From: an uncultured bacterium
GTDB lineage: Bacteria; Elusimicrobiota; UBA5214
DNA length: 26,147 nt
Reading direction: 5' to 3'
NCBI GenBank assembly: GCA_964599925.1
Contig: CAZRHN010000005.1
Coordinates: 2,563 to 28,709 of the forward strand
How positions within the stretch are numbered: position 1 is the first letter of the stretch; the number at the start of each line of letters is the position of its first letter. The notes under the pieces are model-generated. The model worked only from the letters and a program-made list of their open reading frames with translations, did not search any database and was not told where the DNA came from. This document shows positions 1,029 to 26,075 of the stretch, piece by piece. The translations under genes were made by a program, and so were the position numbers.

Positions 1029-1058
1029 GCGTGGGGTAAACCCTGGGGAACCCCACGC
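1029..1058. repeat. Hairpin in the putative def 5' leader
   Basis: GCGTGGGGT (1029-1037) / ACCCCACGC (1050-1058) perfect 9-bp inverted repeat, followed by AAATTTTTT. Confidence 0.7.
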
Positions 1059-1092: not shown

Positions 1093-1668
1093 ATGAGCAT
1101 ACGGGAAATAAAAAAATTTAATGAACCTATACTTTACCAGAAGGTTAAACCAGTAGAGAAGGTTACCTTGGAAACTAAAAATTTAATTCAAGACCTGAAA
1201 GATACTCTTCTGGCAAGTAAAGGTGTTGGATTAGCGGCTAATCAAATTGGTGTACCTTTAAGGGTGCTTGTGATAGACTTAAAGTCAGACTCAAGTAGCC
1301 AAGAGCCAAGAGCTTCACCCCGCACCAAACTCGGTGCGGGGCAAGAGAGCCAAGAGCGAATTCTTACTTTAATTAATCCAAAAATAGTTGCTTCTCGAGG
1401 GAGAGAAATTGCTGAAGAGGGATGTTTATCTTTTCCCGGGCTTTATCTCAAAATTAAACGTGCCTCCCGGATAAAAGTGGAAGCCTTGGACTTGCAAGAA
1501 AAATCTATAGTTATTGAAAGTGAGGGTTTACCTGCTCGTGTAATCCAGCACGAAATTGACCATTTGGAAGGGAAAGTTTTTATTGACCGTTTATCTTTCT
1601 GGAAAAGATGGAAAATTAAACGTGAATTAACACGAATAATGAAAGAAAAAACGAATTTACACGAATGA
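1093..1668 (+). CDS. def: Peptide deformylase with an in-frame repeat-derived insertion
   Basis: Motifs GVGLAANQIG, EGCLS and HEIDH. ATG 1093 (MSIREI) is preferred to TTG 1066. Confidence 0.97.
   Translation: MSIREIKKFNEPILYQKVKPVEKVTLETKNLIQDLKDTLLASKGVGLAANQIGVPLRVLVIDLKSDSSSQEPRASPRTKLGAGQESQERILTLINPKIVASRGREIAEEGCLSFPGLYLKIKRASRIKVEALDLQEKSIVIESEGLPARVIQHEIDHLEGKVFIDRLSFWKRWKIKRELTRIMKEKTNLHE
1297..1357. repeat. Composite insertion in def: AGCCAAG heptamers flanking a CCCCGCACC/GGTGCGGGG palindrome
   Basis: AGCCAAG x2 (1297-1310), 9-bp perfect stem (1318-1326 / 1333-1341), AGCCAAG again (1348-1354). Confidence 0.85.
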
Positions 1669-2627
1669 AAATTATTTTTTTTGGAACACCGGAAGTGGCG
1701 GTACCTTTTTTGGAATTTCTTTATAAAAATGAAAAAGTAGTAGCAGTAGTGACGCAACCGGATAAAAAGGCAGGTAGAGGTGTAGAACATCTTAAATTGT
1801 CTCCGGTAAAACTTTTTGCTAAGAAGAAAGGTTTACCCCTTTTTCAACCTTTAAAAATAGATGAACTACTCGCTACTCGCTACTCGTTATTCGCTGATTA
1901 TGATTTGGGTGTTGTAGTTGCTTACGGTAAAATTTTACCTAAATCTTTAATTGAAACTGCAAGATTGGGTTACATAAATGTACATTTTTCACTTCTGCCA
2001 AAATATCGTGGTGCCGCGCCGGTCCAATGGACATTGATTAATGGAGAAAAAGAAACCGGGGTGACTACTTTCTGGATTGACGAAGGATTGGATACAGGCA
2101 AAATTATTTGTCAAAAAAAAATAGCCATTGAAAATAGTGACACGGTGATTACCTTAGAAAAGAAATTAACCCCTCTTGGTATAGAAATACTTAAAGAAAC
2201 AATAGAAATAGTTAAAAAAAATCCGCAGGTCAGCAACCTTCAGATAGGTATACCTAGTTATGCACCGAGTTTAAAAAAGGAAGACGGTAAGATTAACTGG
2301 GGAGATAAAGATGCTTTTGAAATATGCAATCTAATTCGGGGGACACAACCTTGGCCCGGAGCATATTCAACAGTTAAAAGTGTAAAGTGTAAAGTGAAAA
2401 GTTTAAAAATTCTCGAAGCGGAAGTTGTTGATTTTAACCTATCACCTATCACCTATCACCTATCACCTGGTTCTATTGTCGGTCTTGAAAAAAGTATCGG
2501 TTTTATAGTAAAATGTAAAAATAATTTTTTGCTCATCTTAAAAGTGCAAGAAGAAGGGAAAAAAATAGTTTCTGCTTGGGACTGGTTGCAAGGGGCAAGA
2601 TTAAAAATTGGTGATTGTTTGGGGTGA
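1665..2627 (+). CDS. fmt: Methionyl-tRNA formyltransferase
   Basis: MKIIFFGTPE, VVTQPDKKAGRG, NVHFSLLPKYRGAAP, ETGVT, DEGLDTG, PWPGAY; follows def. Confidence 0.97.
   Translation: MKIIFFGTPEVAVPFLEFLYKNEKVVAVVTQPDKKAGRGVEHLKLSPVKLFAKKKGLPLFQPLKIDELLATRYSLFADYDLGVVVAYGKILPKSLIETARLGYINVHFSLLPKYRGAAPVQWTLINGEKETGVTTFWIDEGLDTGKIICQKKIAIENSDTVITLEKKLTPLGIEILKETIEIVKKNPQVSNLQIGIPSYAPSLKKEDGKINWGDKDAFEICNLIRGTQPWPGAYSTVKSVKCKVKSLKILEAEVVDFNLSPITYHLSPGSIVGLEKSIGFIVKCKNNFLLILKVQEEGKKIVSAWDWLQGARLKIGDCLG
1866..1895. repeat. Heptamer tandem array (CTACTCG)x3 plus TTATTCG, in-frame in fmt
   Basis: Read directly; encodes LLATRYSLFA. Confidence 0.9.
2377..2404. repeat. Heptamer tandem array AAAGTGT-AAAGTGT-AAAGTGA-AAAGTTT, in-frame in fmt
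   Basis: Read directly; encodes KSVKCKVKSL. Confidence 0.85.
2437..2468. repeat. Heptamer tandem array (ACCTATC)x4 plus ACCT, in-frame in fmt
   Basis: Four perfect copies; encodes NLSPITYHLSP. Confidence 0.95.
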
Positions 2628-2638
2628 TAACTCTTAGG

Positions 2639-3181
2639 ATGAGGCACTGGTTATTAGTTCGTTTTGGTTATCCGATTTTAGTAATTTTATCTAAACTTTT
2701 CCCTTGGGCTGAAGAATTTTATGAATCTGCGTTTATTAATTTTAATAATCAACTGGTAAAAGCAAAAAAAATTGTATTAAAAAAAGCACAACAACTTTTG
2801 GTTCTTTTACCACAATGTTTACAATTTGCTGATTGTCCGCATAAAATTACAAAAAATATACTCAATTGTCACCAATGCGGTAAATGTTTAATTGCTGATT
2901 TAGTTCGTTTGGGTGAAAAATATGGTTTGAAAATAAATGTTGCTACTGGTGGACGGTTAGCACGAAGAATTGTCTCTGACTTCAAACCAAATGCAATTGT
3001 TGCCTGTGCTTGTGAACACGAATTAGCCGATGGCGTTCAGGCGGTATACCCTTTACCAGTATTGGCTATATCCAACAGTCGTCCTTTTGGTCCCTGTTTA
3101 AATACCGGTGTTGATTTAGACAAAATTGAACAAGCAGTAAAAACGTTTTTAGGGGGTGAAAAAGATGAAAAATACATTTAA
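2639..3181 (+). CDS. DUF116-family protein
   Basis: LLVLLPQCLQ...C...CHQCGKC, VATGGRLAR, AIVACACEHEL, RPFGPCLNT pattern; typical position after fmt. ATG 2639 chosen. Confidence 0.8.
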   Translation: MRHWLLVRFGYPILVILSKLFPWAEEFYESAFINFNNQLVKAKKIVLKKAQQLLVLLPQCLQFADCPHKITKNILNCHQCGKCLIADLVRLGEKYGLKINVATGGRLARRIVSDFKPNAIVACACEHELADGVQAVYPLPVLAISNSRPFGPCLNTGVDLDKIEQAVKTFLGGEKDEKYI

Positions 3182-4031
3182 AACTTTTCTTTTGATGCTC
3201 GGTTTAACCTTACTCTTTTTATTCCTCGGACAAAATATTGCGGGGAGACAAGGGTTAATCACTGCTTTTCTTTTTGCTTTAGTGATGAATTTTGTTACTT
3301 ACTGGTTCAGCGATAAAATTGTTCTCGTGATGTATGGTGGACGACAAGTCTCCCGAGAACAAATGCCGGAAGTTTATGCTTTGTTGGATGAAATTACTAT
3401 GCAAGCCGGAATGCCGATGCCGAAAGTATATCTACTTCCAATGGAGGCACCGAATGCTTTTGCTACTGGACGTAATCCTGCGCATGCCAGTGTTGCCGTA
3501 ACTAAAGGTATCCTTAAACTTCTTGACCGCGAAGAACTGAAAGGGGTATTAGCCCATGAAATTGGACATATTAAAAATCGAGATATTCTCATTGCTACAA
3601 TTGCGGCTACAGTTGCGGGAGCGATAATTTTTCTTGCCCGGATGGCACAATATGCGGCAATTTTTGGTGGCGTGGGGCGTGATGAGCAGGAAAGAGGAGG
3701 CAATCCTTTAGGATTATTCCTTCTGGCAGTATTGGCACCTTTAGCCGCGATAATTATTCAAATGGCAATTTCTCGCACTCGTGAATATCAAGCCGACGAA
3801 ACTAGTGGAAAGATTTCTCGTAACCCGCTGGGTTTAGCGCGAGCGTTACAAAAACTTGATGCTTATGCACGGCGGATACCCTTGGCTAATGCTAATCCTT
3901 CAACTGCACATCTTTTTATCGTTAATCCTTTAAGGGGCGGTAGTATTTTTACCCTTTTCTCTACACATCCACCGATAAAAGAAAGAATTAAACGGTTGGA
4001 AAAACTTACTCAAGGAATGTCTGGTTATTAA
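3165..4031 (+). CDS. htpX: Zinc metalloprotease HtpX (M48)
   Basis: PNAFATGRNP, HEIGH (HExxH), SRTREYQADE, LFSTHPP; purine-rich SD before ATG 3165. Confidence 0.95.
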   Translation: MKNTFKTFLLMLGLTLLFLFLGQNIAGRQGLITAFLFALVMNFVTYWFSDKIVLVMYGGRQVSREQMPEVYALLDEITMQAGMPMPKVYLLPMEAPNAFATGRNPAHASVAVTKGILKLLDREELKGVLAHEIGHIKNRDILIATIAATVAGAIIFLARMAQYAAIFGGVGRDEQERGGNPLGLFLLAVLAPLAAIIIQMAISRTREYQADETSGKISRNPLGLARALQKLDAYARRIPLANANPSTAHLFIVNPLRGGSIFTLFSTHPPIKERIKRLEKLTQGMSGY

Positions 4032-4984
4032 TGAAAAGACAAAAATTATTTTATCAGTTACTTTTTACCGGGGTTGTTTTTCTTGGGGTGACTATTTTTC
4101 TTTTTAATCAAATAATGCACATATTGGTGCATCAGAAAAAGACAGTTACTGTGCCAAACTTAATTGGTAAACCGATGGAAGAAGCGCTTGACCTCTTAGC
4201 AAATTTGAATCTGGGGTTACAGAAAGTTGGTGAACGTTACGAGAAAAGATTTTCTCCGGGAACAATAATTCAGCAGAGACCTTCTCCCGGATTAACCGTT
4301 AGAGAAGGAAAAATTATCCGGGTGGCCCTCTCCCGGGGAGGGGAAATAATTTTTATTCCGGATTTAACGAATCAGTCTTTACGTTCTGCAGAGGTTATTT
4401 TACGGCGGAGCAATTTGGCATTAGGTGAAATTGACCAAAGTTACAGTCTTACTGTTGAAAAAGGGAAAATAATTCGCCAGAAACCTTTAGTGGGGACTGC
4501 GGTAGCGAGAGATAGTTTGGTTAATTTAGTTCTTTCTCTTGGATTACCGCCAGCGGGGATAGTATTGATGCCTGATTTCGTAAACAAAAATATTTCCGAA
4601 GCGGAACTCTGGATGCAAGAACGCAATTTAAAAATTAAACAGATTGAGGAAGATACAAATTCAACATTACCGAAAGGGACGATCCTTAAACAGATACCCT
4701 CAGCAGATACCGTGGTGAGCAAAGAAAGCGAGATAAAACTCGTAGTAAGTGGGCGAATTAAAGAAACATTTAAGAAATTATATTGGTTGCATTACGAAAT
4801 ACCGCAGGCAGATGAAGAAAAGAATATCCGTATTTTCCTTGAAGATAGCGCTGGAGAGCGTATCGTCTACGAGAAGGCACATTTACCGGGGACAAAAATT
4901 GATTTACCCTTAGCAGTTGAAGACAAAGGAAAAATAAAAATATTTGCCAACGAAATTTTAGTTGAAGAAAGAATACTTGAATGA
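4031..4984 (+). CDS. Membrane-anchored PASTA-domain protein (about 3 PASTA repeats, no kinase domain)
   Basis: N-terminal TM segment; repeats VPNLIG / IPDLTN / MPDFVN each followed by G.IIxQ.P motifs. Confidence 0.85.
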   Translation: MKRQKLFYQLLFTGVVFLGVTIFLFNQIMHILVHQKKTVTVPNLIGKPMEEALDLLANLNLGLQKVGERYEKRFSPGTIIQQRPSPGLTVREGKIIRVALSRGGEIIFIPDLTNQSLRSAEVILRRSNLALGEIDQSYSLTVEKGKIIRQKPLVGTAVARDSLVNLVLSLGLPPAGIVLMPDFVNKNISEAELWMQERNLKIKQIEEDTNSTLPKGTILKQIPSADTVVSKESEIKLVVSGRIKETFKKLYWLHYEIPQADEEKNIRIFLEDSAGERIVYEKAHLPGTKIDLPLAVEDKGKIKIFANEILVEERILE

Positions 4985-5661
4985 AAAATAAAATTGCCCC
5001 TTCACTACTCAGTGCTGACTTTTCTTGCTTGCAAAAAGAGTTGAAATTAGTTGAGCGTGCCGATGCTGACCTTTTACATCTTGATGTAATGGACGGACAT
5101 TTTGTTCCCAATCTTACATTCGGACCATTATTATTAGAGTCCTTGAGAAAATATACTGCGTTGCCTTTTGATGTTCATTTAATGATTGAAAATCCTGCTA
5201 AATTTGTTGAGCGTTTTATCTCCGCAGGTGCAAAATATATTACCTTCCATTCTGAAGCGTCTACTCCTACGGAAATCAAAAAAATTCTAACTTATCGAAA
5301 GGTGAAAACCGATGGCGGGTATCTCAAAGTTGGCTTGGCGATTAAACCGAAAACTCCACTGGAGACAATTCTTCCCTATCTTAAGAATTTAGATTTGGTG
5401 CTGGTGATGACAGTTGAACCGGGTTTTTCTGGACAGAAATTTATGCCGGAAGTTTTACCTAAAGTAGCCTACTTACGAAAAATCTTAAATAAAAGAAAAC
5501 TTAATTTGGAAATTGAAGTTGATGGTGGGATTAATCCGGCGACTGCAAAACAATGTGCTTTGGCGGGGGCAAGTATTTTTGTTGCGGGGAACAGTATTTT
5601 TCGTAGCGGTAATATCCGAAAAGCAATTTTTGAATTAAGAAAAAGTATTTCTCCCATATAA
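4981..5661 (+). CDS. rpe: Ribulose-phosphate 3-epimerase
   Basis: IAPSLLSADF, HLDVMDGHFVPN, DVHLM, MTVEPGFSGQ, VDGGI. Confidence 0.97.
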   Translation: MKNKIAPSLLSADFSCLQKELKLVERADADLLHLDVMDGHFVPNLTFGPLLLESLRKYTALPFDVHLMIENPAKFVERFISAGAKYITFHSEASTPTEIKKILTYRKVKTDGGYLKVGLAIKPKTPLETILPYLKNLDLVLVMTVEPGFSGQKFMPEVLPKVAYLRKILNKRKLNLEIEVDGGINPATAKQCALAGASIFVAGNSIFRSGNIRKAIFELRKSISPI

Positions 5662-5679
5662 GTAACTCGGATAGAGAAT

Positions 5680-5708
5680 TTGACTAAAAAAATATTTTAA
5701 TGTATAAT
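5680..5708 (+). promoter_or_regulatory. Sigma70 promoter for the rpsP operon
   Basis: TTGACT (5680-5685), 17-nt spacer, TATAAT (5703-5708). Confidence 0.8.
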
Positions 5709-5743
5709 CGTTACAAATTTTGAAAATAAGAATTGGAGGAGAA

Positions 5744-6046
5744 ATGGCGGTAAGAATAAGATTTCAACGTCTCGGTCGTCCGAAGCATCCCTTTTTTCGT
5801 TTGGTAGCAGTGGAAAAAAGAAAAAAAAGGAACGGAGAAATTATTGAAAAACTTGGTTATTACAACCCAAAAACTAAGGAATTTAGGTTTGCTGCAGAAA
5901 GAGTTAAGTTCTGGTTAGCAAAAGGTGCGCAACCCTCAGAAACAGTGAGTAATCTTTTGAAAAGAAATCTAAAGAAAAGCGAAAAGCCCGCTTCGCAGCG
6001 AGGCGAGCCGGATTCGGTGAGCAAGCCCGGCGAAAAGTCAGGTTAG
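5744..6046 (+). CDS. rpsP: 30S ribosomal protein S16 with a GC-rich C-terminal tail
   Basis: MAVRIRFQRLGRPKHPFFRLVA, EKLGYYNP, WLAKGAQPSETV; GGAGG SD before ATG 5744. Confidence 0.97.
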   Translation: MAVRIRFQRLGRPKHPFFRLVAVEKRKKRNGEIIEKLGYYNPKTKEFRFAAERVKFWLAKGAQPSETVSNLLKRNLKKSEKPASQRGEPDSVSKPGEKSG

Positions 6047-6082
6047 TTTTTCTGAACGGGAAAATGGAGGTGAAAAGAGAAG

Positions 6083-6313
6083 ATGAAGGACCTTTTATTG
6101 ACGATGGCTAAAGCGTTGGTTGATTACCCCACGCAGGTGGAGATTAAGGAAGTTGAAGGGGAGCGGACAAGAATTCTTGAACTGAAAGTTGCTGAGACTG
6201 ACCGCGGAAAAATCATTGGTAAAGAAGGGAGAATTATTAAAGCAATCAGAACGATTGTTAACGCTGCTTCAGCAAAACAAAATAAACGTGTAACTGTAGA
6301 AATTATTGAATAG
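6083..6313 (+). CDS. khpA: KH-domain RNA-binding protein (KhpA/YlqC-like)
   Basis: [20 protein letters not shown] (GxxG KH loop); canonical position after rpsP; GGAGGTG SD. Confidence 0.9.
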
Positions 6314-7055
6314 GATAGACATAATTACGCTTTTCCCTTCAATGTTTGTTGGTCCCTTTAATGAAAGTATTATCAAAAGGGCAATTGAAAAGGGAAAAGT
6401 AAAAATTTTCGTTCACAATTTACGTAATTTTGGCGTTGCTAAACATCGCCTTTGCGATGATCGCCCTTACGGCGGTGGTCCGGGTATGGTTTTGAAACCC
6501 GAACCAATCTGGCGAGCCCTAAAAGCGATTAAACAAAGAGCAAAGAACAAAAAGCAAAAAATAATTCTTCTTTCTCCGCAGGGAAAACTCTTTAATCAGA
6601 AAGAAGCAGAAAGATTAGCAAAATACAAACATTTAATTTTAATCTGCGCCCATTACGAAGGCGTGGATGAGCGAGTATATTCCTGGATTGATGAAGAAAT
6701 TTCCATCGGTGATTATATTTTAACTGGAGGTGAAATACCTACCTTAGTCCTTGTTGATAGTATTGTTCGTCTTCTACACGGGGTTGTAGGAAAGAGTGAA
6801 TCGCTGAAAAGTGAGTCCTTTAGTGGTAAATTTCTTGATCACCCTCAGTATACCCGACCCCGATGTTACCGAAGTAAAAGGGTGCCCGCAGTTCTCCTTT
6901 CCGGGGATCATAAGAAAATTGCTCTCTGGCGTAGGAAAGAGGCAATTAAAAATACCTATTTACGGCGCCCGGATTTACTGACGAAGATACGTTTAACCAA
7001 AGGAGAGAAAAAAATTGTAGAAAAGGTAAAGAAAAAATATGCGTGGACTGATTGA
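6306..7055 (+). CDS. trmD: tRNA (guanine-N1)-methyltransferase
   Basis: [48 protein letters not shown]; TTG start. Confidence 0.97.
6532..6559. repeat. Degenerate heptamer array AACAAAG-AGCAAAG-AACAAAA-AGCAAAA in trmD
   Basis: 7-nt periodicity; encodes [10 protein letters not shown] in a variable loop. The A-rich composition lowers certainty. Confidence 0.55.
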
Positions 7056-7467
7056 CCTGGTTGAATCGCAAATAATAAAATCAGGATTAAAGAAAGACTT
7101 ACCTCAATTCCGTGTCGGTGATACGGTAAGAGTATGGTTTAAGATTGTTGAAAATCCCTCGGAGAAGCCAAGCGAAGCGGTGGTGCGTTTACAACCTTTT
7201 GAAGGGATCGTAATTCGTTACCGTGGGACAGGTTTATCCCGCACTTTTACAGTACGAAAGATTTCTTCCGGTATCGGTGTAGAGCGCACCTTTCCCTTGT
7301 ATTCCCCACAAATTGAAAAAATTGAAGTTTCAAAATCAGGTAAAATAAGACGAGCGCGATTATATTACTTACGCTATGCTCTCGGTCGCGCTGCTCGGGT
7401 TGAGGGAGAAACGGTTAAAGAAACAACAGGTAGTGTTAGTGAACAGGCAGAAAAAAATATTTCCTGA
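7039..7467 (+). CDS. rplS: 50S ribosomal protein L19
   Basis: [49 protein letters not shown]. Confidence 0.97.
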
Positions 7468-7843
7468 AAATAAAGGGCGATGGCAAGAATTCGGGCATTA
7501 CGGGGAAAGAATCGCCTTAGAGTTCTTAGAAAAAGAGGGTTACCGTATTCTTGAAAAGAATTATCGTTGCCAACTGGGTGAAATTGATTTAATTGCCCGG
7601 GATAAAAATATAATTGCCTTTATTGAAATAAAATCTCGTCAAGGGCTAAGTTTTGGTTCTCCTCAAGAGGCAGTTACTCACCATAAACAAAGACAGATTG
7701 TTAAAGTTGCACTCTATTATCTAAAACAAAAACACCTCCTTAAAGACCGTCTATTATTTAGATTTGATGTTGTATCTATTTCTCCAGAGGGTATTGAATT
7801 GATTAAGGATGCTTTCTCGTCCCCAGCGGGGTATACATATTGA
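7439..7843 (+). CDS. YraN/UPF0102 family putative endonuclease; start uncertain
   Basis: [43 protein letters not shown]. In-frame GTG 7439 has AGGT 7 nt upstream. Confidence 0.85.
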
Positions 7844-7844
7844 A

Positions 7845-8915
7845 ATGATTATTGGTCTTACCGGTCCAAATGCCTGTGGCAAAGGAGAAGTTGCAAAATA
7901 TTTATCCACTAAAGGTTACCGGGTTTACTCTTTATCCGATGTTTTACGTACCGAAGCAGAAAAAGTGGGGTTAGACCTTTCTCGCCAAAATTTGATTAAT
8001 TTTGGACGGAAATTAAGAAAAAAATATGGTAAAGCAGTACTGGTAAAAAAACTTTTATCGCAAATTCAAAAACATAAAAATGTAGTCATTGACAGTATAA
8101 GAAATACTGGCGAAATTAGCGAATTGCGTAAACTATCAACTATCAACTCTCAACTGTCAACTGTTTTTATTCTTGGTGTTGATGCACCAGCAAAATTGCG
8201 TTATCAAAGATTGTGTCAACGCAAACGTTTAGGGGACACAAAAACTTTTACTGAATTTATGGAAACTGAAAAAAAGGAAAATTCTTCAAATAAATTTAAC
8301 CAACAAATTAGCCACTGTATGAAATTAGCCGATAAAGTTATCATCAATGACAGTTCGCTTAAACAATTACATAAAAGAATTGACTCTTTTCTTTCTGCAA
8401 TTGAGAACTCCCGCTTACCACTTACCACTCACTACTCACCAGTTCCCCGTCCCTCATGGGATAAATATTTTCTTAAACTTGCATTATTGGTTGCCGAAAG
8501 GTCAACCTGTCGGAGACACCATGTTGGTGCGGTAATTGTCCGTGATAAACGTCTGCTCACTACCGGTTATAACGGTGCACCAGCGGGAGTAAAAGATTGC
8601 CTTGAGTTGGGTTGTTTAAGGGAAGAATTAGGTATACCTTCAGGAACAAGACAGGAAATCTGTCGGGCGATTCATGCAGAACAAAATGCAATTATTCAGG
8701 CGGGGTTATACGGAATAAATATTGAAGGAGCAACAATTTATTGCACTCATACACCCTGCACTCTTTGTGCACGGATGCTTGCTAATGCAAAAATAAAAAG
8801 ATATGTTACCTGCGGAACTTATGCCGATAAGTCTTTTTGTTCTCTGTTTAATGAGGCAAAAATAAAATTTGCCAAACTTAAAAAACCGAACTTAAAAATA
8901 GGAATTTTAGATTGA
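7845..8915 (+). CDS. Fusion: P-loop NMP/dephospho-CoA-kinase-like domain plus dCMP (cytidine/deoxycytidylate) deaminase
   Basis: N-terminal IIGLTGPNACGKGEVA (Walker A), LSDVLR, VIDSIRN. C-terminal RPSWDKYF, RSTC, VGAVIV, TGYNG, HAEQNAI, PCTLC. ATG 7845 chosen. Confidence 0.88.
   Translation: MIIGLTGPNACGKGEVAKYLSTKGYRVYSLSDVLRTEAEKVGLDLSRQNLINFGRKLRKKYGKAVLVKKLLSQIQKHKNVVIDSIRNTGEISELRKLSTINSQLSTVFILGVDAPAKLRYQRLCQRKRLGDTKTFTEFMETEKKENSSNKFNQQISHCMKLADKVIINDSSLKQLHKRIDSFLSAIENSRLPLTTHYSPVPRPSWDKYFLKLALLVAERSTCRRHHVGAVIVRDKRLLTTGYNGAPAGVKDCLELGCLREELGIPSGTRQEICRAIHAEQNAIIQAGLYGINIEGATIYCTHTPCTLCARMLANAKIKRYVTCGTYADKSFCSLFNEAKIKFAKLKKPNLKIGILD
8131..8163. repeat. Heptamer array AACTATC-AACTATC-AACTCTC-AACTGTC-AACTG, in-frame
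   Basis: Read directly; encodes KLSTINSQLST. Confidence 0.9.
8414..8441. repeat. Heptamer array CTTACCA-CTTACCA-CTCACTA-CTCACCA, in-frame in the interdomain linker
   Basis: Read directly; encodes LPLTTHYSP just before the deaminase RPSW motif. Confidence 0.85.
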
Positions 8916-8969
8916 CACTGAAATGGGATTAGTAAGTTTAACAAAACTAATTATCCAAAGGCGAGAGAA

Positions 8970-9620
8970 ATGGTAGAGAACTTATTTTGGTTAGGGCATG
9001 CAAGTTTCAAAATTACCGGAGAGATGGTTCGAGACCCTCACCATCCCGAGCAAAGTCGAAGGATGGTTGTCTATGTTGACCCCTGGCAGATAAAGAAAGG
9101 TGGTGAGCCGGCAAACATAATTTTGATTACTCATGACCATTATGACCATTGTTCAGCAGAAGATGTAAAAAAGATACAAACCAAAGATACAGTTATTGTT
9201 ACTGTTTCTCAGTGTAAAAGTAACCTTAGTGGTGAAATAATTATTACCAAACCGAATGAAAAAATTACTGTGCAAGGAATTGAGATAAGTGCTGTACCGG
9301 CTTACAATCTCAATAAGCCTTTCCATCCCAAAGCAAACGGTTATCTCGGTTTTATTGTTAATTTGAATAAGAAACTTTATTATCATGCCGGGGATACTGA
9401 TTTCATTCCCGAAATGGAAAAGGTTAAATGTGATATTGTCCTTTTACCAGTCTCGGGAACTTATGTGATGACCGCGGAAGAAGCAGCGAAAGCGACTGAG
9501 AAAATTAAACCTGCACTTGCGATCCCAATGCATTATGGCAGTATCGTCGGGTCAAGAAAAGATGCTGAACAGTTTAAAAAGTTATGTGAATGTTCGGTAG
9601 AAATCTTAGAAAAAAGTTGA
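8970..9620 (+). CDS. MBL-fold metallo-hydrolase (UlaG-like/beta-lactamase superfamily)
   Basis: WLGHASF, THDHYDH (HxHxDH), YHAGDT, AIPMHYG. Confidence 0.9.
   Translation: MVENLFWLGHASFKITGEMVRDPHHPEQSRRMVVYVDPWQIKKGGEPANIILITHDHYDHCSAEDVKKIQTKDTVIVTVSQCKSNLSGEIIITKPNEKITVQGIEISAVPAYNLNKPFHPKANGYLGFIVNLNKKLYYHAGDTDFIPEMEKVKCDIVLLPVSGTYVMTAEEAAKATEKIKPALAIPMHYGSIVGSRKDAEQFKKLCECSVEILEKS
9023..9068. repeat. Palindromic element in-frame in the MBL gene, bounded by GATGGTT direct repeats
   Basis: GATGGTT at 9023-9029 and 9062-9068 (39 nt apart); internal TTCGA...TCGAA inverted repeat. Confidence 0.8.
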
Positions 9621-9624
9621 ACAA

Positions 9625-11205
9625 ATGTTTTATCTTGAACCGTTAGTTCTACCCGAAGAAGAAAATTTTACCGACCGTTATTTAAAATTATCTAAAAATT
9701 TGTTTTCCCTCGGCTTTGCTCGGGATGGTGAAAATATTGAACTATTAGCCCAAGATAAAGATATGAATTATCAGCAAATTCCCTTGAGCCTCAATGAAAA
9801 AATTTTGCGCATAATCTGGTATGAACAAAAATTTGAACGGCGTGGTTTAAGGACAGTTGATGGTAAAAAGATTTGTATTATCTCACCCGGTGAATGGAAT
9901 CTTGATGAGGGACCAGATTTTAAAAGTGCGGAGATACGTTTTGGTGAAAAGATAATTTCTGGAGATATTGAAGTAGACCTGAAAGCATCCGACTGGAAGA
10001 AACATCAACATAACTGTGATGAGAAATATAATCAAGTAATCCTTCATGTTTTTTTTCTCAATAATCGCAAAGAAGAAAAAATTGCCCGAAAAGCAAATCA
10101 GGAATACGCTGAGCGTGTGGAACTGCGCGGAGCGTTGAGAGAAGATTACCTCCCCAATCCGGAAGATATGGAAAATTATCCTTCCCGTGCTTATTTAAAA
10201 AGAGGTAACTGTGGTAAAAAAATTTCTGTTCATAGTTATCCCTTAATAGAGAAGTTACTCCTCTGGGCTGGCGCGGGAAGATTTTTATTAAAAACCGAAC
10301 GGTTTAATCAGCGCTTAGCACGATTATCTTTTGACCAACTTCTTTATGAAGGGGTAATGGAAGGTCTAGGTTATAAAGCGAACCGTGAGCCGATGCTTAC
10401 TCTCGCTCGCTTGTTACCTTTAGAAAAAATTAAAAGTTATGTGGAAGATTTTCCTCTTGAAGAAAAAATTTACCTCCTGGAGACACTTTATTTTTATCTT
10501 TCTGGACTTTTACCAGAAGAAAAATATTTTTCTTCTTCTTCTTGTCCAGAAACAAAAATTTATCTTGAAAAGTTATGGACAATTCTGAAAAATTATCTGA
10601 AATTTCTGCCTACACCTTTTCATCTCAGTCGCTGGGTATTTAAAGGTGTCCGTCCGGCGAATTTTCCTTTAAGACGTCTTTCGGGGATAAGCCATTTTCT
10701 TAACCGCCATTGGCAAGGAGTAAAGGAAGGTTTTTTTCTTTCTTTCTATAAAAAAATAAAGATGGCTAATTCAATAAATGAGTTGAAAAAAATTTTTTTT
10801 CAACCTGGGGAAGGATATTTTGCCAACCACAGCCAATTTTCCCAGAAAAAAAGTAAAAAAGTATATGCTTTAATTGGTGAAGAACGAGTTTCGGCAATTC
10901 TGGTGAATACAGTTTTTCCTTTATATTACCTTTATGCATTGCGGGAAAATGATTTATCTACCCAGAAGATAATCTATTCGTTTTATCACTCTTTGAAAAG
11001 AATAAACGTTAACCATATTGCTAAATTGATGGCTTACCGTCTTTTTGGTGCAGAGAAAATCAGGCAATTTCCGATTGAAAGCGAACAAAAACAGCAAGGT
11101 CTTTTACAAATTTTTCAAGATTTTTGCGAGACAAGAATTTCCGCTTGTGGACAATGTTTCTTTCCACAAATTTTTGATTTGTCAATTGGCGAAATAATAA
11201 AGTGA
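9625..11205 (+). CDS. DUF2851-family protein; start could be ATG 9763
   Basis: EKILRIIW, PGEWNLDEGPDF, GDIEV..KASDWKKHQH..D..YNQVILHV, RPANFP..RL pattern recalled for DUF2851. Confidence 0.75.
   Translation: MFYLEPLVLPEEENFTDRYLKLSKNLFSLGFARDGENIELLAQDKDMNYQQIPLSLNEKILRIIWYEQKFERRGLRTVDGKKICIISPGEWNLDEGPDFKSAEIRFGEKIISGDIEVDLKASDWKKHQHNCDEKYNQVILHVFFLNNRKEEKIARKANQEYAERVELRGALREDYLPNPEDMENYPSRAYLKRGNCGKKISVHSYPLIEKLLLWAGAGRFLLKTERFNQRLARLSFDQLLYEGVMEGLGYKANREPMLTLARLLPLEKIKSYVEDFPLEEKIYLLETLYFYLSGLLPEEKYFSSSSCPETKIYLEKLWTILKNYLKFLPTPFHLSRWVFKGVRPANFPLRRLSGISHFLNRHWQGVKEGFFLSFYKKIKMANSINELKKIFFQPGEGYFANHSQFSQKKSKKVYALIGEERVSAILVNTVFPLYYLYALRENDLSTQKIIYSFYHSLKRINVNHIAKLMAYRLFGAEKIRQFPIESEQKQQGLLQIFQDFCETRISACGQCFFPQIFDLSIGEIIK
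9706..9730 (-). repeat. Second copy of the 9039-9063 element, inverted orientation
   Basis: Reverse complement CACCATCCCGAGCAAAGCCGAGGGA vs CACCATCCCGAGCAAAGTCGAAGGA: 23/25 identical. Confidence 0.9.
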
Positions 11206-12578
11206 AAACCTGTTTATTGATGAAAAAAATATTCGGGAAAAAAAATTTTGGACTCCTTAAGGAAATTGGGCAAGCAGCCCAAGAGGATGGTCTTACTGCT
11301 TATTTGGTTGGTGGGCCGGTACGTGATTTTCTATTGAATAAGCTGAGTAAACCCTGCACCAGAAGGATGCAGGGCAAGGATTTAGATATTGTAATTTCCG
11401 GTGGAGAGAAACTTGAGGAAAATACGGCAATAAATTTGGCAAAAAAGTTATTTAAAATTTGGTCGCCTCATCGGCGACTTGCCGGAGAGGCATGGCAGAA
11501 AAGAATAAAATTTAAGATACATCAGCGTTTCGGAACAGCGACCATTTTATTTCCTGAAAAAGGAAACCAACTTTTAGAAATAGACTTTGCTTTTTCCCGT
11601 AAGGAAAACTATCCTTCTCCTGGTAGATTGCCGGAAGTGGAGCCAGGCAATATTGAAGACGACCTTTATCGTCGGGATTTTACGATTAATGCTTTAGCAG
11701 TAAATTTAAGTTCGGACGAGTTTGGCGAATTGGTCGATTCTACTGATGGAAAAAACGATTTAAAAAAAAAATTTATTCGTGTGCTTCACGAAAAAAGTTT
11801 TCTTGATGATCCGACCAGGATATTGCGGGCGGCACGCTTCGCCGGAAGATATAATTTTTCTTTAGAAAAAAAAACTTTAACTTGGTTAAAAGAAGCGATA
11901 AAGAAAAATGCGCTTTTCACAATTAGCCGGCAACGTTTCCGCGAAGAGATGGTGAACATTTTGAAGGAGAAAGAGTCCGCTCATTGCCTTAATTTACTTG
12001 CTGATTGGAGTGTGTTAAGTTTCTTGAGTCCTGATATCCGTTGGGATAAAACCAAAACTATAGATTATAAAATGGAAAAAGGAGACGAAAATTGGTTGGT
12101 AGGGTTGCTTCTGCTGATCAAAGATTTAGATTATCAAAAGACGGAAGAAATTACCAGAAGGATGGTTTTAACCCGCAAGGAGAGAAAAATAATTCTCCAG
12201 AGTAAGAAATATTTACCCGATGCTCTTAAAGCATTGGAGAAAAACTATTCACTTACCCATCTTTATCACTATCTTTCTTTACTTCCCGAACAAGGGTTGA
12301 TATACTTAGGGGTGACCAATTCTTGTTGGACAAATCTAATTGGTACTTTTCAGAGGAGAAAAGACAAAGCAAAACCGGTACTCAACGGTGAAGATTTGAA
12401 AAAAATAGGATATCCTCCAGGGCCAATTTATAAAAAAATATTGAAAAAAATTTTTCAGGTTAAACTTTTAGGTAAGTTGCCGACTTACCTATCAGAAAAA
12501 CAGACTAAGGAAAAAGAAATCAAATTTGTCCTCCGACATTTTCCTCTTAAAGGGGTGACAGCGAAGGAGCGCGCCTAA
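11202..12578 (+). CDS. Class II tRNA nucleotidyltransferase / poly(A) polymerase family
   Basis: LVGGPVRDFLL, DLDIV, RRDFTINALA, SFLDDPTRILRAARF, LNGEDL..G.PPGP. CCA-, A- or CC-adding specificity cannot be determined from this. Confidence 0.9.
   Translation: MKTCLLMKKIFGKKNFGLLKEIGQAAQEDGLTAYLVGGPVRDFLLNKLSKPCTRRMQGKDLDIVISGGEKLEENTAINLAKKLFKIWSPHRRLAGEAWQKRIKFKIHQRFGTATILFPEKGNQLLEIDFAFSRKENYPSPGRLPEVEPGNIEDDLYRRDFTINALAVNLSSDEFGELVDSTDGKNDLKKKFIRVLHEKSFLDDPTRILRAARFAGRYNFSLEKKTLTWLKEAIKKNALFTISRQRFREEMVNILKEKESAHCLNLLADWSVLSFLSPDIRWDKTKTIDYKMEKGDENWLVGLLLLIKDLDYQKTEEITRRMVLTRKERKIILQSKKYLPDALKALEKNYSLTHLYHYLSLLPEQGLIYLGVTNSCWTNLIGTFQRRKDKAKPVLNGEDLKKIGYPPGPIYKKILKKIFQVKLLGKLPTYLSEKQTKEKEIKFVLRHFPLKGVTAKERA
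11351..11378. repeat. ACCCYGC-family palindrome in-frame in the nucleotidyltransferase
   Basis: CCCTGCA-CC / GG-A-TGCAGGG followed by CAAG; encodes KPCTRRMQGK. Confidence 0.75.
11465..11491. repeat. Second palindrome in-frame in the nucleotidyltransferase
   Basis: GCCTC-A-TCGGC / GCCGG-A-GAGGC stem with loop GACTT; within SPHRRLAGEAW. Confidence 0.7.
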
Positions 12579-12770
12579 CGAAGTAGCGAGCGAGTAAGCG
12601 CAATAAGGGGTCGCTGACCGACACTGTCTGAGCGACGAAAAGGAGCTCGTGTCTTGACAGGCCCGAAGGGCAGGATGTCGGGACTTGCGACACAGGCTGA
12701 ACGACGAAGAGGAGTTCGTGCCTTGCGTGCGGCAAAGCCGTGCGAAGTCCTTGATTCTCCTCTATTGAGA
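12541..12770. mobile_element. Candidate non-autonomous structured repeat element (MITE/REP-like), long variant
   Basis: GC-rich multi-hairpin block homologous to 25889-25904 and 25978-26067; contains a 69-nt-period internal duplication. Mobility is inferred, not shown. Confidence 0.6.
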
Positions 12771-12776
12771 GAAAAG

Positions 12777-13382
12777 ATGTTGATCCAGATTTTTGTATTA
12801 CTTTTTGCGGTAGTAGTTCACGAATGTTGTCATGGATGGATGGCCGAAAAATGTGGCGATGATACTGCACGAATAATGGGAAGAATTACCCTTAATCCTC
12901 TACCGCATTTAGACCCATTTGGTTCAATTTTACTTCCTTTACTTTTGATTTTAAGTCGGTCCCCTTTCCTCTTTGCTTGGGCAAAACCGGTACCGATTAA
13001 TCCAACAAAATTCAATAATCTACGGCAGGATTTAGTTAAAGTTGCTTTAGCCGGTCCGGGAGCAAATTTTCTTCTGGCAGTTATCTCAGCAATATTTCTT
13101 TGGTTCGTACCTAGAGGTTTAGTTTTCTACGATACCTTAAATTTTTCGGTATTGATAAATTTAGTTTTGGGTGTGTTTAACCTTATCCCCATACCACCGC
13201 TTGATGGTTCACGGGTTGTTTCGGGTTTATTGCCCTTAGATTTATCTTATAAGTACGATTCCCTTGCCCCTTATGGGTTCATTATTGTTATTTTCCTTTT
13301 TTACAGCGGTTTCTTAGGTTCGGTTCTCTGGCCAATTGTAGTTTTTTTGCATCGGCTTTTACTTATTGGAATCAAGTTTTAG
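12777..13382 (+). CDS. Site-2 protease family (peptidase M50)
   Basis: HECCH (HExxH), GDDTARIMGRITLNPLPHLDP, VALAGP, FNLIPIPPLDG. ATG 12777 chosen; the upstream 41 codons of the ORF call lie in the repeat element. Confidence 0.92.
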   Translation: MLIQIFVLLFAVVVHECCHGWMAEKCGDDTARIMGRITLNPLPHLDPFGSILLPLLLILSRSPFLFAWAKPVPINPTKFNNLRQDLVKVALAGPGANFLLAVISAIFLWFVPRGLVFYDTLNFSVLINLVLGVFNLIPIPPLDGSRVVSGLLPLDLSYKYDSLAPYGFIIVIFLFYSGFLGSVLWPIVVFLHRLLLIGIKF

Positions 13383-13387
13383 ATGAA

Positions 13388-14401
13388 ATGAAAAGAATTC
13401 TTTCTGGAATGCGTCCTTCGGGAAAATTGCATGTTGGTCATTATTTTGGTGCTCTAAACAACTGGGTAAATTTGCAAGATTCATATGAGTGCTATTATAT
13501 GATTGCTGATTGGCATGCGTTAACTTCTGAATATGCGAATCCAGGTGAACTTCAAGAAAATATATCGGAGATGGTCATTGATTGGTTAGCCTCCGGAATT
13601 AACCCGAACAAAAGTGTTCTTTTCCGTCAATCGGAAGTTAAGGAACACGCAGAACTACATTTGCTACTTTCAATGATTATACCCCTCCCCTGGCTTGAAC
13701 GCTGTCCGACTTACAAGGAACAATTACAAGAAATTAAAGATAGAGATTTATCAACCTATGGATTTTTAGGTTACCCAGTTTTACAGGCGGCAGACATTCT
13801 TATTTACAAGGCGGAATTTGTCCCGGTTGGCGAAGATCAGTTACCACATTTAGAATTATCCCGGGAAATTGCACGGCGATTTAACAATTTTTATGGTTCA
13901 CCCCGCCCTTGCACACAAGAGCGGGGTAAAATTTTACCCGAACCTCAGGCATTACTGACGGAAACAGCGAAATTGCCGGGTGTTGATGGGCGAAAGATGT
14001 CAAAATCTTATAATAACGCAATTTACCTCTCGGATTCGGAAGAAGGGGTTACCGAGAAAGTAAGGAATATGTTTACTGATCCGCAAAAAATAAGAATTGA
14101 TGACCCCGGACATCCGGAGACTTCCGGCTGCGTGGTTTACGCTTTTTATCAAGCCTTAGCTCCACACTTTTTTGAAAAAGTGCGGGGTGAATGTGAAAAA
14201 GGAAAAATTGGTTGCGTTGCCTGTAAAAAGGAACTGGCTGTAATTTTGAATCACTTTTTAGAGCCCTTTCGGAAAAGACGAAAAGAATTAGCCTCTGACC
14301 CAGAAAAAATTAAAAAAATTCTTCTTCAAGGAAAAGAAAAAGCGCAAATTGTTGCTCAGAAAACAATGGCCGAAGTGCGTAAAGCAATGAATCTTCAATA
14401 A
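13388..14401 (+). CDS. trpS: Tryptophan--tRNA ligase
   Basis: SGMRPSGKLHVGHY (HIGH), GYPVLQAADIL, VPVGEDQ, KMSKSY. Confidence 0.97.
   Translation: MKRILSGMRPSGKLHVGHYFGALNNWVNLQDSYECYYMIADWHALTSEYANPGELQENISEMVIDWLASGINPNKSVLFRQSEVKEHAELHLLLSMIIPLPWLERCPTYKEQLQEIKDRDLSTYGFLGYPVLQAADILIYKAEFVPVGEDQLPHLELSREIARRFNNFYGSPRPCTQERGKILPEPQALLTETAKLPGVDGRKMSKSYNNAIYLSDSEEGVTEKVRNMFTDPQKIRIDDPGHPETSGCVVYAFYQALAPHFFEKVRGECEKGKIGCVACKKELAVILNHFLEPFRKRRKELASDPEKIKKILLQGKEKAQIVAQKTMAEVRKAMNLQ
13900..13930. repeat. ACCCYGC-family palindrome in-frame in trpS
   Basis: ACCCCGC-C-CTTG / CAAG-A-GCGGGGT; encodes SPRPCTQERG. Confidence 0.85.
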
Positions 14402-14404
14402 TAC

Positions 14405-14503
14405 GATGCAAACAGATAAAAGAGACGATGTAGACGAGATAAAAAAGCTGATTCAAACAAATGAAAAAATCTGTCTGAATCATAGCAGTTATCTGTCTGG
14501 ATC
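14405..14503. repeat. Nested inverted array of ~13-nt modules filling the trpS-scpA intergenic region
   Basis: Left modules GATGCAAACAGAT, GATGTAGACGAGAT, GATTCAAACAAAT; right modules ATCTGTCTGAATC, ATCTGTCTGGATC. Confidence 0.7.
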
Positions 14504-14515
14504 GCTTTATAAAAG

Positions 14516-15235
14516 ATGGATTACACAGTAAGATTAGAAATTTTTGAAGGTCCTCTTGATTTATTACTTTATTTAATTAAAAAGAACGACCTTGACATTT
14601 ATGATATTCCAATTTCCCAGATCACTGCTGAATATTTAGAATATGTAGAGTTGATGAAGATGCTTAATTTAGAAGCGGTGGGTGAATTTTTGGTGATGGC
14701 AGCGACATTAATGCAGATTAAAGCACGGATGCTTCTTCCCACACCAGTATCGGAAGAAGAAAAAGAAGAAAAGGATCCACGGGCTGAACTTGTAGCAAAA
14801 CTTTTGGAATACCAAAAATTTAAAGAAGCCGGGAAATATCTTGAAACACAAGAATTACAGCGAGAAAACATTTTTTATCATCAAGAACCCCAATTTGATG
14901 AAGAAGAATTCGTTTTAAATGTAAGTCTTTTTGACCTGCTGGAATCTTTCCGCCAAGTTATCCGTGAAGCAAAAGAAGAAGTTAAAGAGATTATTTATGA
15001 AGAAATTCCATTAGAAGAAAAGATACGTTATATCTTAAGTTGCCTGGAAGGGAAGCTTTATATTACTTTCCGTCAACTTTTTAATTTTGCAGAAGGTCGT
15101 CTTTCAATGATTGTGACATTTTTAGCGCTTCTGGAATTAATTCGTTTAAAACAAATTGTTGCTCGGCAATCTCGTTCTTTCGGTGAAATTAGAATTTATA
15201 AATTAAAAACTACCCAGACAGATATCTCGGAATGA
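14516..15235 (+). CDS. scpA: Segregation and condensation protein A (kleisin)
   Basis: LEIFEGPLDLLLYLIKKN, EFLVMAATLMQIKARMLLP, VTFLALLELIR. Confidence 0.95.
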   Translation: MDYTVRLEIFEGPLDLLLYLIKKNDLDIYDIPISQITAEYLEYVELMKMLNLEAVGEFLVMAATLMQIKARMLLPTPVSEEEKEEKDPRAELVAKLLEYQKFKEAGKYLETQELQRENIFYHQEPQFDEEEFVLNVSLFDLLESFRQVIREAKEEVKEIIYEEIPLEEKIRYILSCLEGKLYITFRQLFNFAEGRLSMIVTFLALLELIRLKQIVARQSRSFGEIRIYKLKTTQTDISE

Positions 15236-15238
15236 AAT

Positions 15239-15784
15239 ATGGAAAAAGAAGAGATAGAAAATATTATTGAGAATTTACTTTTCGTCTCTAGCGAACCGTT
15301 GAAAATCGAAAAGATTAGCGAACTTCTTGACCTGGAAAAGGAAAAAATAAAAGAAATTATTGAAGAACTTCGTAGTGAATATTCTTCCCGTGCCTTGCAG
15401 ATAGAGGAAATTGCCGAGGGGTACCTGATGAGTACACGTCCGCAATATGCTCCTTGGGTGAAAAAGTTGTATAAAGAAAAAATTACTTTGAAATTGAGCA
15501 GCGCGGCTCTGGAAACTTTATCAATTATTGCCTATAAACAACCGATTAGCCGTGCGGAAATTGAAGAGATCCGCGGTGTGGAAGTAATCGCAGTTTTGGA
15601 AACACTTTTAGAGAAAAATCTTATTCATGTCTGCGGAAGAAAAGAGAGTATCGGACGCCCTTTACTTTACGGCACAACTGATAAATTTCTTAAATATTTT
15701 GGCTTAAGGAGTTTATCGGAAATTCCACCCTTAGAAGAGTTTGCCGAGAAAGTTCCCGAAGAAGAAACAGAGGTGGAGAGATAG
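15239..15784 (+). CDS. scpB: Segregation and condensation protein B
   Basis: LSSAALETLSIIAYKQPISRAEIEEIRGV, GRPLLYGTTDKFLKYFGL. Confidence 0.95.
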   Translation: MEKEEIENIIENLLFVSSEPLKIEKISELLDLEKEKIKEIIEELRSEYSSRALQIEEIAEGYLMSTRPQYAPWVKKLYKEKITLKLSSAALETLSIIAYKQPISRAEIEEIRGVEVIAVLETLLEKNLIHVCGRKESIGRPLLYGTTDKFLKYFGLRSLSEIPPLEEFAEKVPEEETEVER

Positions 15785-15789
15785 AAAAA

Positions 15790-18712: not shown

Positions 18713-18718
18713 AAGTTG

Positions 18719-18737
18719 CCCCGATGTCATGTCGGGG
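18719..18737. repeat. CCCCGATG-family short palindrome
   Basis: CCCCGA-TGTCATG-TCGGGG; resembles CCTCGATG-TAA-CATCGGGG at 25913-25931. Confidence 0.65.
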
Positions 18738-18749
18738 TGGGAGGGGGAA

Positions 18750-19742: not shown

Positions 19743-19752
19743 AGGAGAAAAA

Positions 19753-24680: not shown

Positions 24681-24684
24681 AGAG

Positions 24685-25824: not shown

Positions 25825-25851
25825 AAAATTTTACAGGCTTTTTCTAAGCAC

Positions 25852-25880
25852 TTGACAAACTTCAAAAAATTTGTTAAATT
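25852..25880 (+). promoter_or_regulatory. Sigma70-like promoter upstream of tRNA-Met
   Basis: TTGACA (25852-25857), 17-nt spacer, TAAATT (25875-25880). Confidence 0.65.
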
Positions 25881-25888
25881 AAAAACAA

Positions 25889-26067: not shown

Positions 26068-26075
26068 AAGTTTTT

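Follow-up and report, generated by a model that had tools for sequence, protein, structure and literature searches.

Heptanucleotide tandem arrays at fixed sites in housekeeping genes of an uncultured bacterium

We analysed a 26,147-nt stretch of DNA (the window) from an uncultured bacterium, AT-rich with a GC content of about 37 %, in which seven tandem arrays with a period of 7 nt lie inside housekeeping genes. With moderate confidence, we read these arrays as lineage-enriched heptanucleotide, sometimes octanucleotide, simple-sequence repeats (SSRs), which would have been shaped by slippage, selection for reading frame and re-homogenisation. Judged from comparisons with relatives, the arrays are inherited and old, bound to fixed sites and re-homogenised. 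They are a natural system for asking why repeats prefer a unit of 7 nt, not a novel class of element; the dominance of 7-nt units among long prokaryotic repeats is an old unanswered question. Because the heptamers of this lineage occupy constant positions that can be aligned, in frame in essential genes and also in 16S rRNA, the birth, homogenisation, unit change (even from 7 to 8 nt) and loss of arrays can be traced site by site, so that the mechanism is testable with more genomes and read-level data.

Seven period-7 arrays in intact genes

Tandem Repeats Finder (TRF), used for all array calls, identified seven period-7 arrays between positions 1292 and 8441 and none in the following 17.7 kb (8442-26147). 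Based on Pfam, which we used for gene identities, the hosts are def, fmt (three arrays), trmD and a fused kinase-deaminase gene (two arrays), and all host open reading frames (ORFs) are intact (Table 1). The first-pass annotation of this DNA, made from sequence alone, was right on the arrays, their hosts, the copy numbers and the arithmetic of 7 against 3. Its statement that all arrays preserve the frame is true, but this is a necessary consequence of intact genes. The arrays of trmD and of the kinase/deaminase junction are weak, and the def array is interrupted.

Four exact self-match runs were found at lag 7; lags 5, 6 and 8-15 had none, and lag 4 had a single short one. A lag scan tolerating mismatches found five tracts at lag 7 and none at other lags of 4-12. 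In 100 dinucleotide shuffles the number of period-7 rows averaged 1.0 with a maximum of 4, compared to the seven observed. All seven arrays, together with their 10-nt flanks, are unchanged in two assemblies from other samples (L169 and L170; 99.7-99.8 % identical overall to the window), and for this reason we consider them real and not artefacts of assembly. Chance low-complexity sequence or misassembly could be suspected in an AT-rich genome where two of seven arrays are weak. This explanation is refuted, with hardly any probability left to it, as the shuffles and the controls at other lags contradict it, independent assemblies contain the same arrays and relatives carry orthologous ones.

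The comparison with L169 and L170 also shows that the arrays are not hypervariable at the strain level. They do not behave as phase-variable contingency loci, having no copy-number polymorphism in these two assemblies and residing in intact housekeeping genes. Rfam and tRNA scans of the window revealed nothing overlapping the arrays. Two TRF rows with a 21-nt period were considered as decayed heptamer arrays and rejected: for 2181-2220 the relatives have similar sequence and no insertion, and the motif duplicated at 5563-5609 presumably matches a conserved Rpe motif.

Enrichment of period 7 among the relatives

An exact-sequence look-up of the Fmt protein of the window gave no match, and relatives were obtained from a homologue search instead (7994 matches at E <= 0.001). 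The search recovered a small uncultured clade with Fmt identities of 67-85 %, the syntenic loci of which we fetched. Beyond this clade, the closest named Fmt matches come from metagenome-assembled genomes (MAGs) of Elusimicrobiota/Endomicrobiia (50-55 % identity), and the host bacterium is probably related to Elusimicrobiota. In the resulting clade sample of about 108 kb of DNA of relatives we counted arrays of at least three copies. Two control sets were used. The first consists of 80 unrelated genome loci (1.34 Mb) from a scan of genome contigs for Rpe, which is too conserved, so that the scan gave only unrelated taxa and its loci were reused as controls. The second consists of 76 unrelated metagenome loci (0.82 Mb), i.e. 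the non-clade loci of the metagenome scan.

The period spectrum of the clade is not flat. As the first-pass annotation had expected, it displays a sharp spike at 7 (20.3 arrays per 100 kb), with a small shoulder at 8 (4.6) and 0.9 at each of periods 6 and 9. Period-7 arrays reach 2.8 per 100 kb in the unrelated genome loci and 0.24 in the unrelated metagenome loci. Most of the period-7/8 arrays of the clade lie inside ORFs (27 of 33). Those in non-coding spacers have about 3.4-4.7 copies, like the coding ones, and the tract length clusters near 30 nt (27-33 nt) at period 7 or 8, whether coding or not.

The control loci also contain scattered heptamer arrays of 4-5 copies with assorted units, found in MAGs of Thermoanaerobaculia, Deltaproteobacteria, Bacillota and Planctomycetales. 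According to the summaries in PMC4679880 and PMC4692102, a survey by Mrazek, Guo & Shah (2007) found heptanucleotides to be the most abundant class of long SSRs in many prokaryotes and tentatively traced this to how much DNA the polymerase holds. Bacterial repeats are thus already known to favour 7 with varied units, and this preference is no sign of a special generator. The earlier argument that ordinary slippage would not favour 7 is not supported, because heptanucleotides are already the commonest long class in surveys and the controls hold them too. A dedicated generator of period-7 DNA, as inferred in the first-pass annotation, has a low probability, and nothing requires one.

One control locus, L052 from a Thermoanaerobaculia MAG, holds nine heptamer arrays, several of which use a single unit in both orientations (CCGACCC / GGGTCGG). 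The arrays with this shared unit are situated within 20 kb (83-150, 1601-1888, 2356-2386 and 11103-11133). The pattern of one unit at many loci resembles the short tandemly repeated repetitive (STRR) sequences of cyanobacteria, while the units of the window are site-specific.

Arrays at orthologous sites of fmt

At fmt site 1, codon-level alignment shows 30-nt arrays in five lineages including the window, with the same flanking codons and different units. Written in one register, the units are TCGCTAC, TTCTCAA, TTACCAC, TTACAGA and TCACCAA. Units of one array have an identity of 0.90; across lineages the identity is 0.50 in this register and 0.14-0.33 in the six others. Two lineages (L167 and L003) have 24 non-repetitive nt and no array at this site, and no residual periodicity was found there.

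The array at fmt site 3 is present in every lineage. It repeats every 7 nt in the window, L165 and L167 (ACCTATC, ACCTTAC) and every 8 nt in L166, L001 and L003/L085 (units TATCAACC, CAATCACC and AACTTATC). The octamers (AACCTATC-type and others) and heptamers are related, and the octamer of L166 equals the heptamer of the window plus one A. A one-base indel found in every unit of an array points to concerted evolution and makes 7 a preference, not a rule; the period had initially been described as always 7, which these three period-8 lineages contradict. In distant Fmt proteins of Elusimicrobiota, periodic peptides of 7 and 8 residues also occur at sites 2 and 3.

The arrays are predicted to fall on peripheral elements of Fmt, judging from an AlphaFold2 model with a mean pLDDT of 88.5. 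Site 1 encodes LLATRYSLFA (residues 68-77) in a short surface helix (66-76), site 2 corresponds to the turn of a beta-hairpin (239-242), and the perfect array of site 3 corresponds to a 14-residue loop (256-269).

Lineages with a protein identity of 67-85 % share sites where arrays persist and stay homogeneous, which could also mean that the arrays are functional cis elements kept at the nucleic-acid level, either as sites of a heptamer-reading protein or as regulatory RNA structures. Cold-shock OB-fold proteins are reported, in a passage of PMC4679880, to bind one heptamer each. We regard this explanation as very improbable, since the units differ by site and lineage, the period can shift to 8, the arrays sit in housekeeping genes that have nothing in common, and the close relatives L167 and L003 do without the array at fmt site 1. 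Similarity of units across sites exceeds a composition-matched null only weakly (identity of at least 6/7 in 7 pairs, compared to 2.2 expected, P ~0.02). There is one exact match, between the unit of the kinase/deaminase junction and that of a 16S rRNA arm (see below), which alone is not significant.

Two further observations concern recombination around fmt. Of the 19 differences between the window and L169, 17 crowd into 2540-2656, where fmt ends (its final 90 nt) and the DUF116 gene begins, and this stretch is a short recombinant tract. Compared to L165 (window 1665-2100), the C-terminal part of Fmt is identical and the N-terminal part, including array site 1, is much more diverged; this mosaic suggests recombination within the gene.

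Hairpins inside and outside the arrays

At def, L166 and P0124 have an empty site, ...AGT AGCCAAGAGC GAA..., which amounts to 1.4 units and has flanks identical to those of the window. The def genes of the window and L165 are longer by 51 nt, composed of 21 nt (three more AGCCAAG-type units) and a 30-nt hairpin segment, each in frame. The hairpin together with the extra units is flanked by the 10-nt direct repeat AGCCAAGAGC. Without the 30-nt hairpin segment the site would contain about 4.4 units, one of them imperfect, and arrays of this size are the most common. A further search among Def homologues for an intermediate with the array and without the hairpin returned only more empty or different states.

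Similar GC-rich hairpins of 27-30 nt with stems CCCYGC...GCRGGG occur in frame in several genes. Searching all loci for exact multi-copy hairpin arms yielded nothing beyond chance 9-mer matches. With a looser motif we recovered a small family, which has three related members in the window (in def, trpS and the gene of the CCA-adding enzyme) and some looser relatives. The hairpins of def and TrpRS have TTCACCCCGC in common, and those of def and the CCA-adding enzyme differ by a compensating C>T / G>A stem pair. Two coding hairpins reside inside heptamer arrays, one in def of the window and one in the kinase gene of L001. The latter adds exactly 10 codons (30 nt, GC-rich) within AACTATC-type units, at the place where the window has (AACTATC)4.6 and no hairpin; L003 and L085 have neither the units nor the hairpin. 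In L166, an (AAAGTTT)3 array at fmt site 2 lies beside a 30-nt double hairpin (2 x 15 nt).

Could the arrays be by-products or scars of a mobile GC hairpin of about 30 nt, the insertion of which multiplies a 7-nt target and the loss of which leaves 4-5 copies? The change at def from an empty site of 1.4 units to a hairpin with three extra units, the modal size that would remain after its removal, the arrangements at the L001 kinase and at fmt site 2 of L166, and the relatedness of the hairpins would all fit such a history. However, no arrays flank the hairpins of the CCA-adding enzyme and trpS, and hairpins are missing from five of the window's seven arrays and from most of those in the clade. 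The period-8 versions at an orthologous site also argue against it, and no transposase or other candidate mobiliser was found in the ~37 kb of this genome examined. The co-occurrence of hairpins and arrays may merely reflect a shared need for permissive loops. We therefore consider the scar explanation unlikely, and it is the def and L001-kinase configurations that keep it under consideration. The scars of a mobile cassette suggested in the first-pass annotation receive limited support: the def array does flank a small inserted element, but hairpins occur without arrays and arrays without hairpins.

The Def loop is a recurrent insertion site, used in the window and in L174. In this relative, with a Def protein of 52 % identity, the same loop (3240-3340) contains two GC hairpins, GCCCCGCC-TTC-GGCGGGG and CCGCCCCGA-GAGAG-TCGGGGGG, in A-rich heptamer-like sequence. 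The strains L085 and L086 are 99.6 % identical, yet two patches of ~100 nt are wholly different. Patch 1 covers the C-terminal tail of Def and the def-fmt spacer (L085 7359-7470, L086 7317-7409), with (AGTTTAA)4.7 and (ACTTATGA)4.0 in one version and GC hairpins in others. Patch 2 is the DUF116-htpX spacer (L085 8981-9085, L086 8919-9085). Short-patch recombination and local rewriting are candidate causes of both.

Arrays in trmD and the kinase-deaminase gene

The tract of trmD has a counterpart in L001, where (GCGAAGA)2.3(AGCAAAA)2.3 occupies the same place. The kinase and deaminase are encoded by two genes in L001 (18144-19302) and L003 (16613-17744). In the window, and also in L169 and L170, they are called as a single gene of 368 aa, in which the CTTACCA array is the linker joining the two reading frames. 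They are fused in L085 too (14013-15110), via a repeat linker different from that of the window. Such tracts create new peptide segments in conserved enzymes, and this one links two genes as one ORF. Inside the kinase gene, L001 carries (CAAATTC)x6. At this place CAAATTC occurs only once in the window, and unrelated sequence comes after it.

In every lineage compared, the kinase/deaminase junction consists of repeats or hairpins. The large differences between L085 and L086 at this junction are located on the margin of a diverged region and were not counted as in-situ array turnover. Upstream of trmD, relatives have a spacer of ~110-140 nt between the KH-domain gene and trmD (L001 15076-15219, L003 14875-15012), which is GC-richer, contains the internal repeat GGTTCGGTAWACTCACC twice and is called there as an N-terminal extension of TrmD. 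The window has no such spacer and the two genes overlap.

Stop codons, strand bias and the 16S rRNA helix

As 7 cannot be divided by 3, an array inside a gene is read in all three frames. Of 20 units of in-gene arrays, 16 contain no stop codon in any of the three sense frames, compared to 52 % expected from base composition. In the AAAGTGT array of fmt site 2, the third unit carries a T>A change exactly where an in-frame TAA would fall. The strand bias of the arrays pointed out in the first-pass annotation is real (C 26 %, G 14 % in the units), but it is accounted for by stop-codon avoidance, because the reverse complements of the units are often not stop-free.

A related structure is found outside protein-coding genes. 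In the longer contig L171 of the same genome, ~10 kb past the window end, the V1 helix of 16S rRNA (11839-11901) is ~60 nt longer than in the Rfam model. Its two arms consist of degenerate heptamers in opposite orientation (GGTGAGT GGAATGT GGGGCGT GGTGAGT and CCACTTA CTACTAA CTACATA TTACAAA). A scan of 6.2 kb around the rRNA operon gave no other lag-7 signal. The arms pair as one long hairpin with a free energy (dG) of -40.2 kcal/mol (z -5.7).

Origin of the arrays

We propose the following course of events, all steps of which are inferred from comparative patterns. Misaligned replication or repair (slippage) would first amplify a local stretch of 7, occasionally 8, nt. In genes, the survivors would be those with a net length change that is a multiple of 3 and with no in-frame stop, which would restrict arrays to tolerant places such as surface helices, turns, loops, linkers and the V1 helix of 16S rRNA. 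Once established, an array may persist at its site for a long time, while contraction and re-expansion or misaligned conversion re-homogenise its units. This concerted evolution would yield units that are nearly identical within a lineage and unlike those of relatives. Finally, selection on protein length may hold the tract near 30 nt. The single-copy heptamers at the corresponding places of relatives (at def and the L001 kinase) and the in-register units point to local amplification and re-homogenisation and not to imported cassettes.

Several results weigh against this course of events. Gain and loss in steps of three units, an expectation of the first-pass annotation, fits cleanly only at def, where the 21 nt are confounded with the insertion of the 30-nt hairpin. 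No unit-number polymorphism, including 3-unit steps, was seen in L169 and L170, although with so few strains this is a weak test. Other length changes are not multiples of 21, i.e. +6 nt for the arrays of fmt site 1 relative to non-array relatives and +18 nt for the L001 kinase array relative to the window. At fmt sites 1 and 2 (compared to distant homologues) and in trmD (compared to relatives) there is no net length change and native sequence was replaced; simple expansion does not predict such replacement with little or no change in length. A stepwise route from one to two, three and four units would frameshift essential genes, so a multi-unit jump or a locally compensated event has to be assumed. 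The ~30-nt size is not explained by the frame filter alone, because the non-coding arrays have similar copy numbers. Moreover, no cause was identified for the 7- to 80-fold enrichment in the clade over the controls.

Another explanation would be a lineage-specific process that rewrites a patch of ~30 nt where it stands, turning it into repeats of a 7-8-nt word next to it and leaving the length wholly or nearly unchanged. Such a dedicated or semi-dedicated generator could be gene conversion out of register or a repair polymerase that switches templates. Besides the length neutrality of fmt sites 1 and 2 and trmD relative to distant homologues, this explanation is favoured by the similar total tract length at both periods, by the likeness of coding and non-coding arrays in copy number and by the strong enrichment in the clade. 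On the other hand, no candidate enzyme was identified, and selection on loop length after expansion also gives length neutrality. Length does change at def (+51 nt), at kinase site 1 of the window (+12 nt) and at the L001 kinase, and unrelated bacteria also have heptamer arrays of similar size. Rewriting in place therefore seems quite unlikely to us. We are equally doubtful about its stronger form, an active new mutational process rewriting ~30-nt patches that may be coupled to the ~30-nt GC hairpin mini-elements. If it were true, patch rewriting would keep remodelling the loops of essential proteins and rRNA helices and could fuse or split neighbouring genes.

Comparison with known repeat systems

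Heptanucleotide SSRs that expand by slippage, which we prefer as the explanation, belong to a class with assorted 7-nt units, few copies and an excess over neighbouring periods, for which slippage has been proposed and the choice of 7 left unexplained, as far as the accounts in PMC4679880 and PMC4692102 go. In the same accounts heptamers are over-represented intergenically in Xanthomonas and Nostoc, and the units found most often in coding regions are those divisible by 3. Like the members of this class, our arrays are head-to-tail repeats with a unit in the range of 5-11 nt and exceed the length allowed by chance. They differ in lying mostly inside housekeeping ORFs, at sites conserved across lineages. 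The comparison with heptamer repeats of cyanobacteria made in the first-pass annotation was right in that the arrays are tandem heptanucleotide units. The STRR sequences of Calothrix/Nostoc, and the GGGGA(C/T)T and GGGAATC repeats of Nostoc and Xanthomonas, are likewise tandem heptamers and sometimes form inverted pairs able to fold into hairpins, like the 16S V1 arms (PMC4692102). However, they use a few fixed units at many intergenic loci (PMC4692102), whereas here the unit is site-specific and the taxon unrelated. The TAACTGA repeats of marine Beggiatoaceae, some cyanobacteria and Bacteroidetes also have 2-6 heptamer copies, a minority of which is read in ORFs as 7-aa periodic peptides; they consist of one heptamer, which in most cases closely precedes a start codon and for which a role in translation has been proposed (PMC4679880). 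Our arrays follow no such positional rule and have no fixed unit.

For the hairpins, a close parallel is provided by the small dispersed repeats (SDR) of Nostoc punctiforme, reportedly described by Elhai et al. in 2008 as hairpins of 21-27 nt that reside inside heptamer repeats and inside genes, which they leave functional, and that vary in presence between relatives. The hairpins of our bacterium measure 27-30 nt, and the def hairpin is likewise present or absent at orthologous sites. Three related copies were counted in ~37 kb, a single empty site suggests that they may be mobile, and the taxon differs from that of SDR; a position within heptamers applies to def and the L001 kinase and not to the CCA-adding enzyme or trpS. 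The palindromic elements of Rickettsia (Ogata et al. in 2000) are said to be ~100-150 nt long, high-copy and inserted in frame at tolerant positions of housekeeping genes. Our hairpins are in frame too, but they have 27-30 nt and the main feature here is the tandem heptamers. In-gene repeats of Borgs reportedly have units divisible by 3, whereas the units here, of 7 or 8 nt, are read in all three frames. Passages of PMC9879509 describe the in-frame tandem repeats of Borgs as fast-evolving, independently arising and adding protein segments that are likely flexible.

Table 1. Arrays, host genes and hairpins of the window
Feature	Position	Strand	Description	Evidence
Intergenic hairpin	1029..1058	.	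30 nt, GCGTGGGGT-N12-ACCCCACGC; between priA and def	
def (peptide deformylase)	1093..1668	+	carries array 1 and hairpin	Pfam PF01327, E 5e-49; ortholog alignments
def array	1292-1313	+	AGCCAAG type, 3.0 copies; split by 30-nt hairpin	TRF
def array, left part	1297..1313	+	(AGCCAAG) x2.4	TRF, sequence
def hairpin segment	1314..1343	+	30 nt, GC-rich, TTCA-CCCCGCACC-AAACTC-GGTGCGGGG-CA; in frame inside array	9-bp perfect stem
def array, right part	1344..1357	+	AGAG + (AGCCAAG) x1.4	sequence
fmt (methionyl-tRNA formyltransferase)	1665..2627	+	carries arrays 2-4	Pfam PF00551 + PF02911
fmt site 1	1866-1895	+	CTACTCG, 4.3 copies	TRF
fmt site 2	2377-2407	+	AAAGTGT, 4.4 copies	TRF
fmt site 3	2437-2468	+	ACCTATC, 4.6 copies, 100% match	TRF
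trmD	6306..7055	+	carries array 5	Pfam PF01746, E 2e-63; alignment
trmD tract	6532..6558	+	weak period 7 (or 14), A[AG]CAAA[GA]; encodes Lys-rich QRAKNKKQK	
trmD tract, array call	6534-6558	+	3.6 copies, 83% match, score 36	TRF
Kinase-deaminase ORF	7809..8915	+	nucleotide-kinase-like (AAA_17) fused to dCMP-deaminase; arrays 6 and 7	Pfam
Kinase site	8131-8162	+	AACTATC, 4.6 copies	TRF
Kinase/deaminase junction	8417-8441	+	CTTACCA, 3.6 copies, 83% match	TRF
Hairpin in CCA-adding/poly(A) polymerase gene	11352..11374	+	CCCTGCA-N9-TGCAGGG	9-aa in-frame insertion (gap vs PDB 4wby)
Hairpin in trpS	13896..13927	+	TTCACCCCGC...GCGGGGTA	10-aa (30-nt) in-frame insertion SPRPCTQERG (gap vs PDB 2g36)
Short GC hairpin	18719..18737	.	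CCCCGATGTCATGTCGGGG, between two genes; arm CCCCGATGT common to L001 kinase hairpin	

Other observations

In annotation, neither the tracts nor the small in-frame hairpins described here should be read as a frameshift or an assembly error. Ribosomal protein S16 has a C-terminal tail (window 5975-6046) encoded by an unusually GC-rich (57 %), hairpin-prone stretch, which may be another small insertion. The window ends with a tRNA-Met gene (26076-26147). In L171 it is followed by the complete rRNA operon (16S, two tRNAs, 23S and 5S; 11392-17094), which lies past the window end, and then by rplJ-rplL-rpoB.

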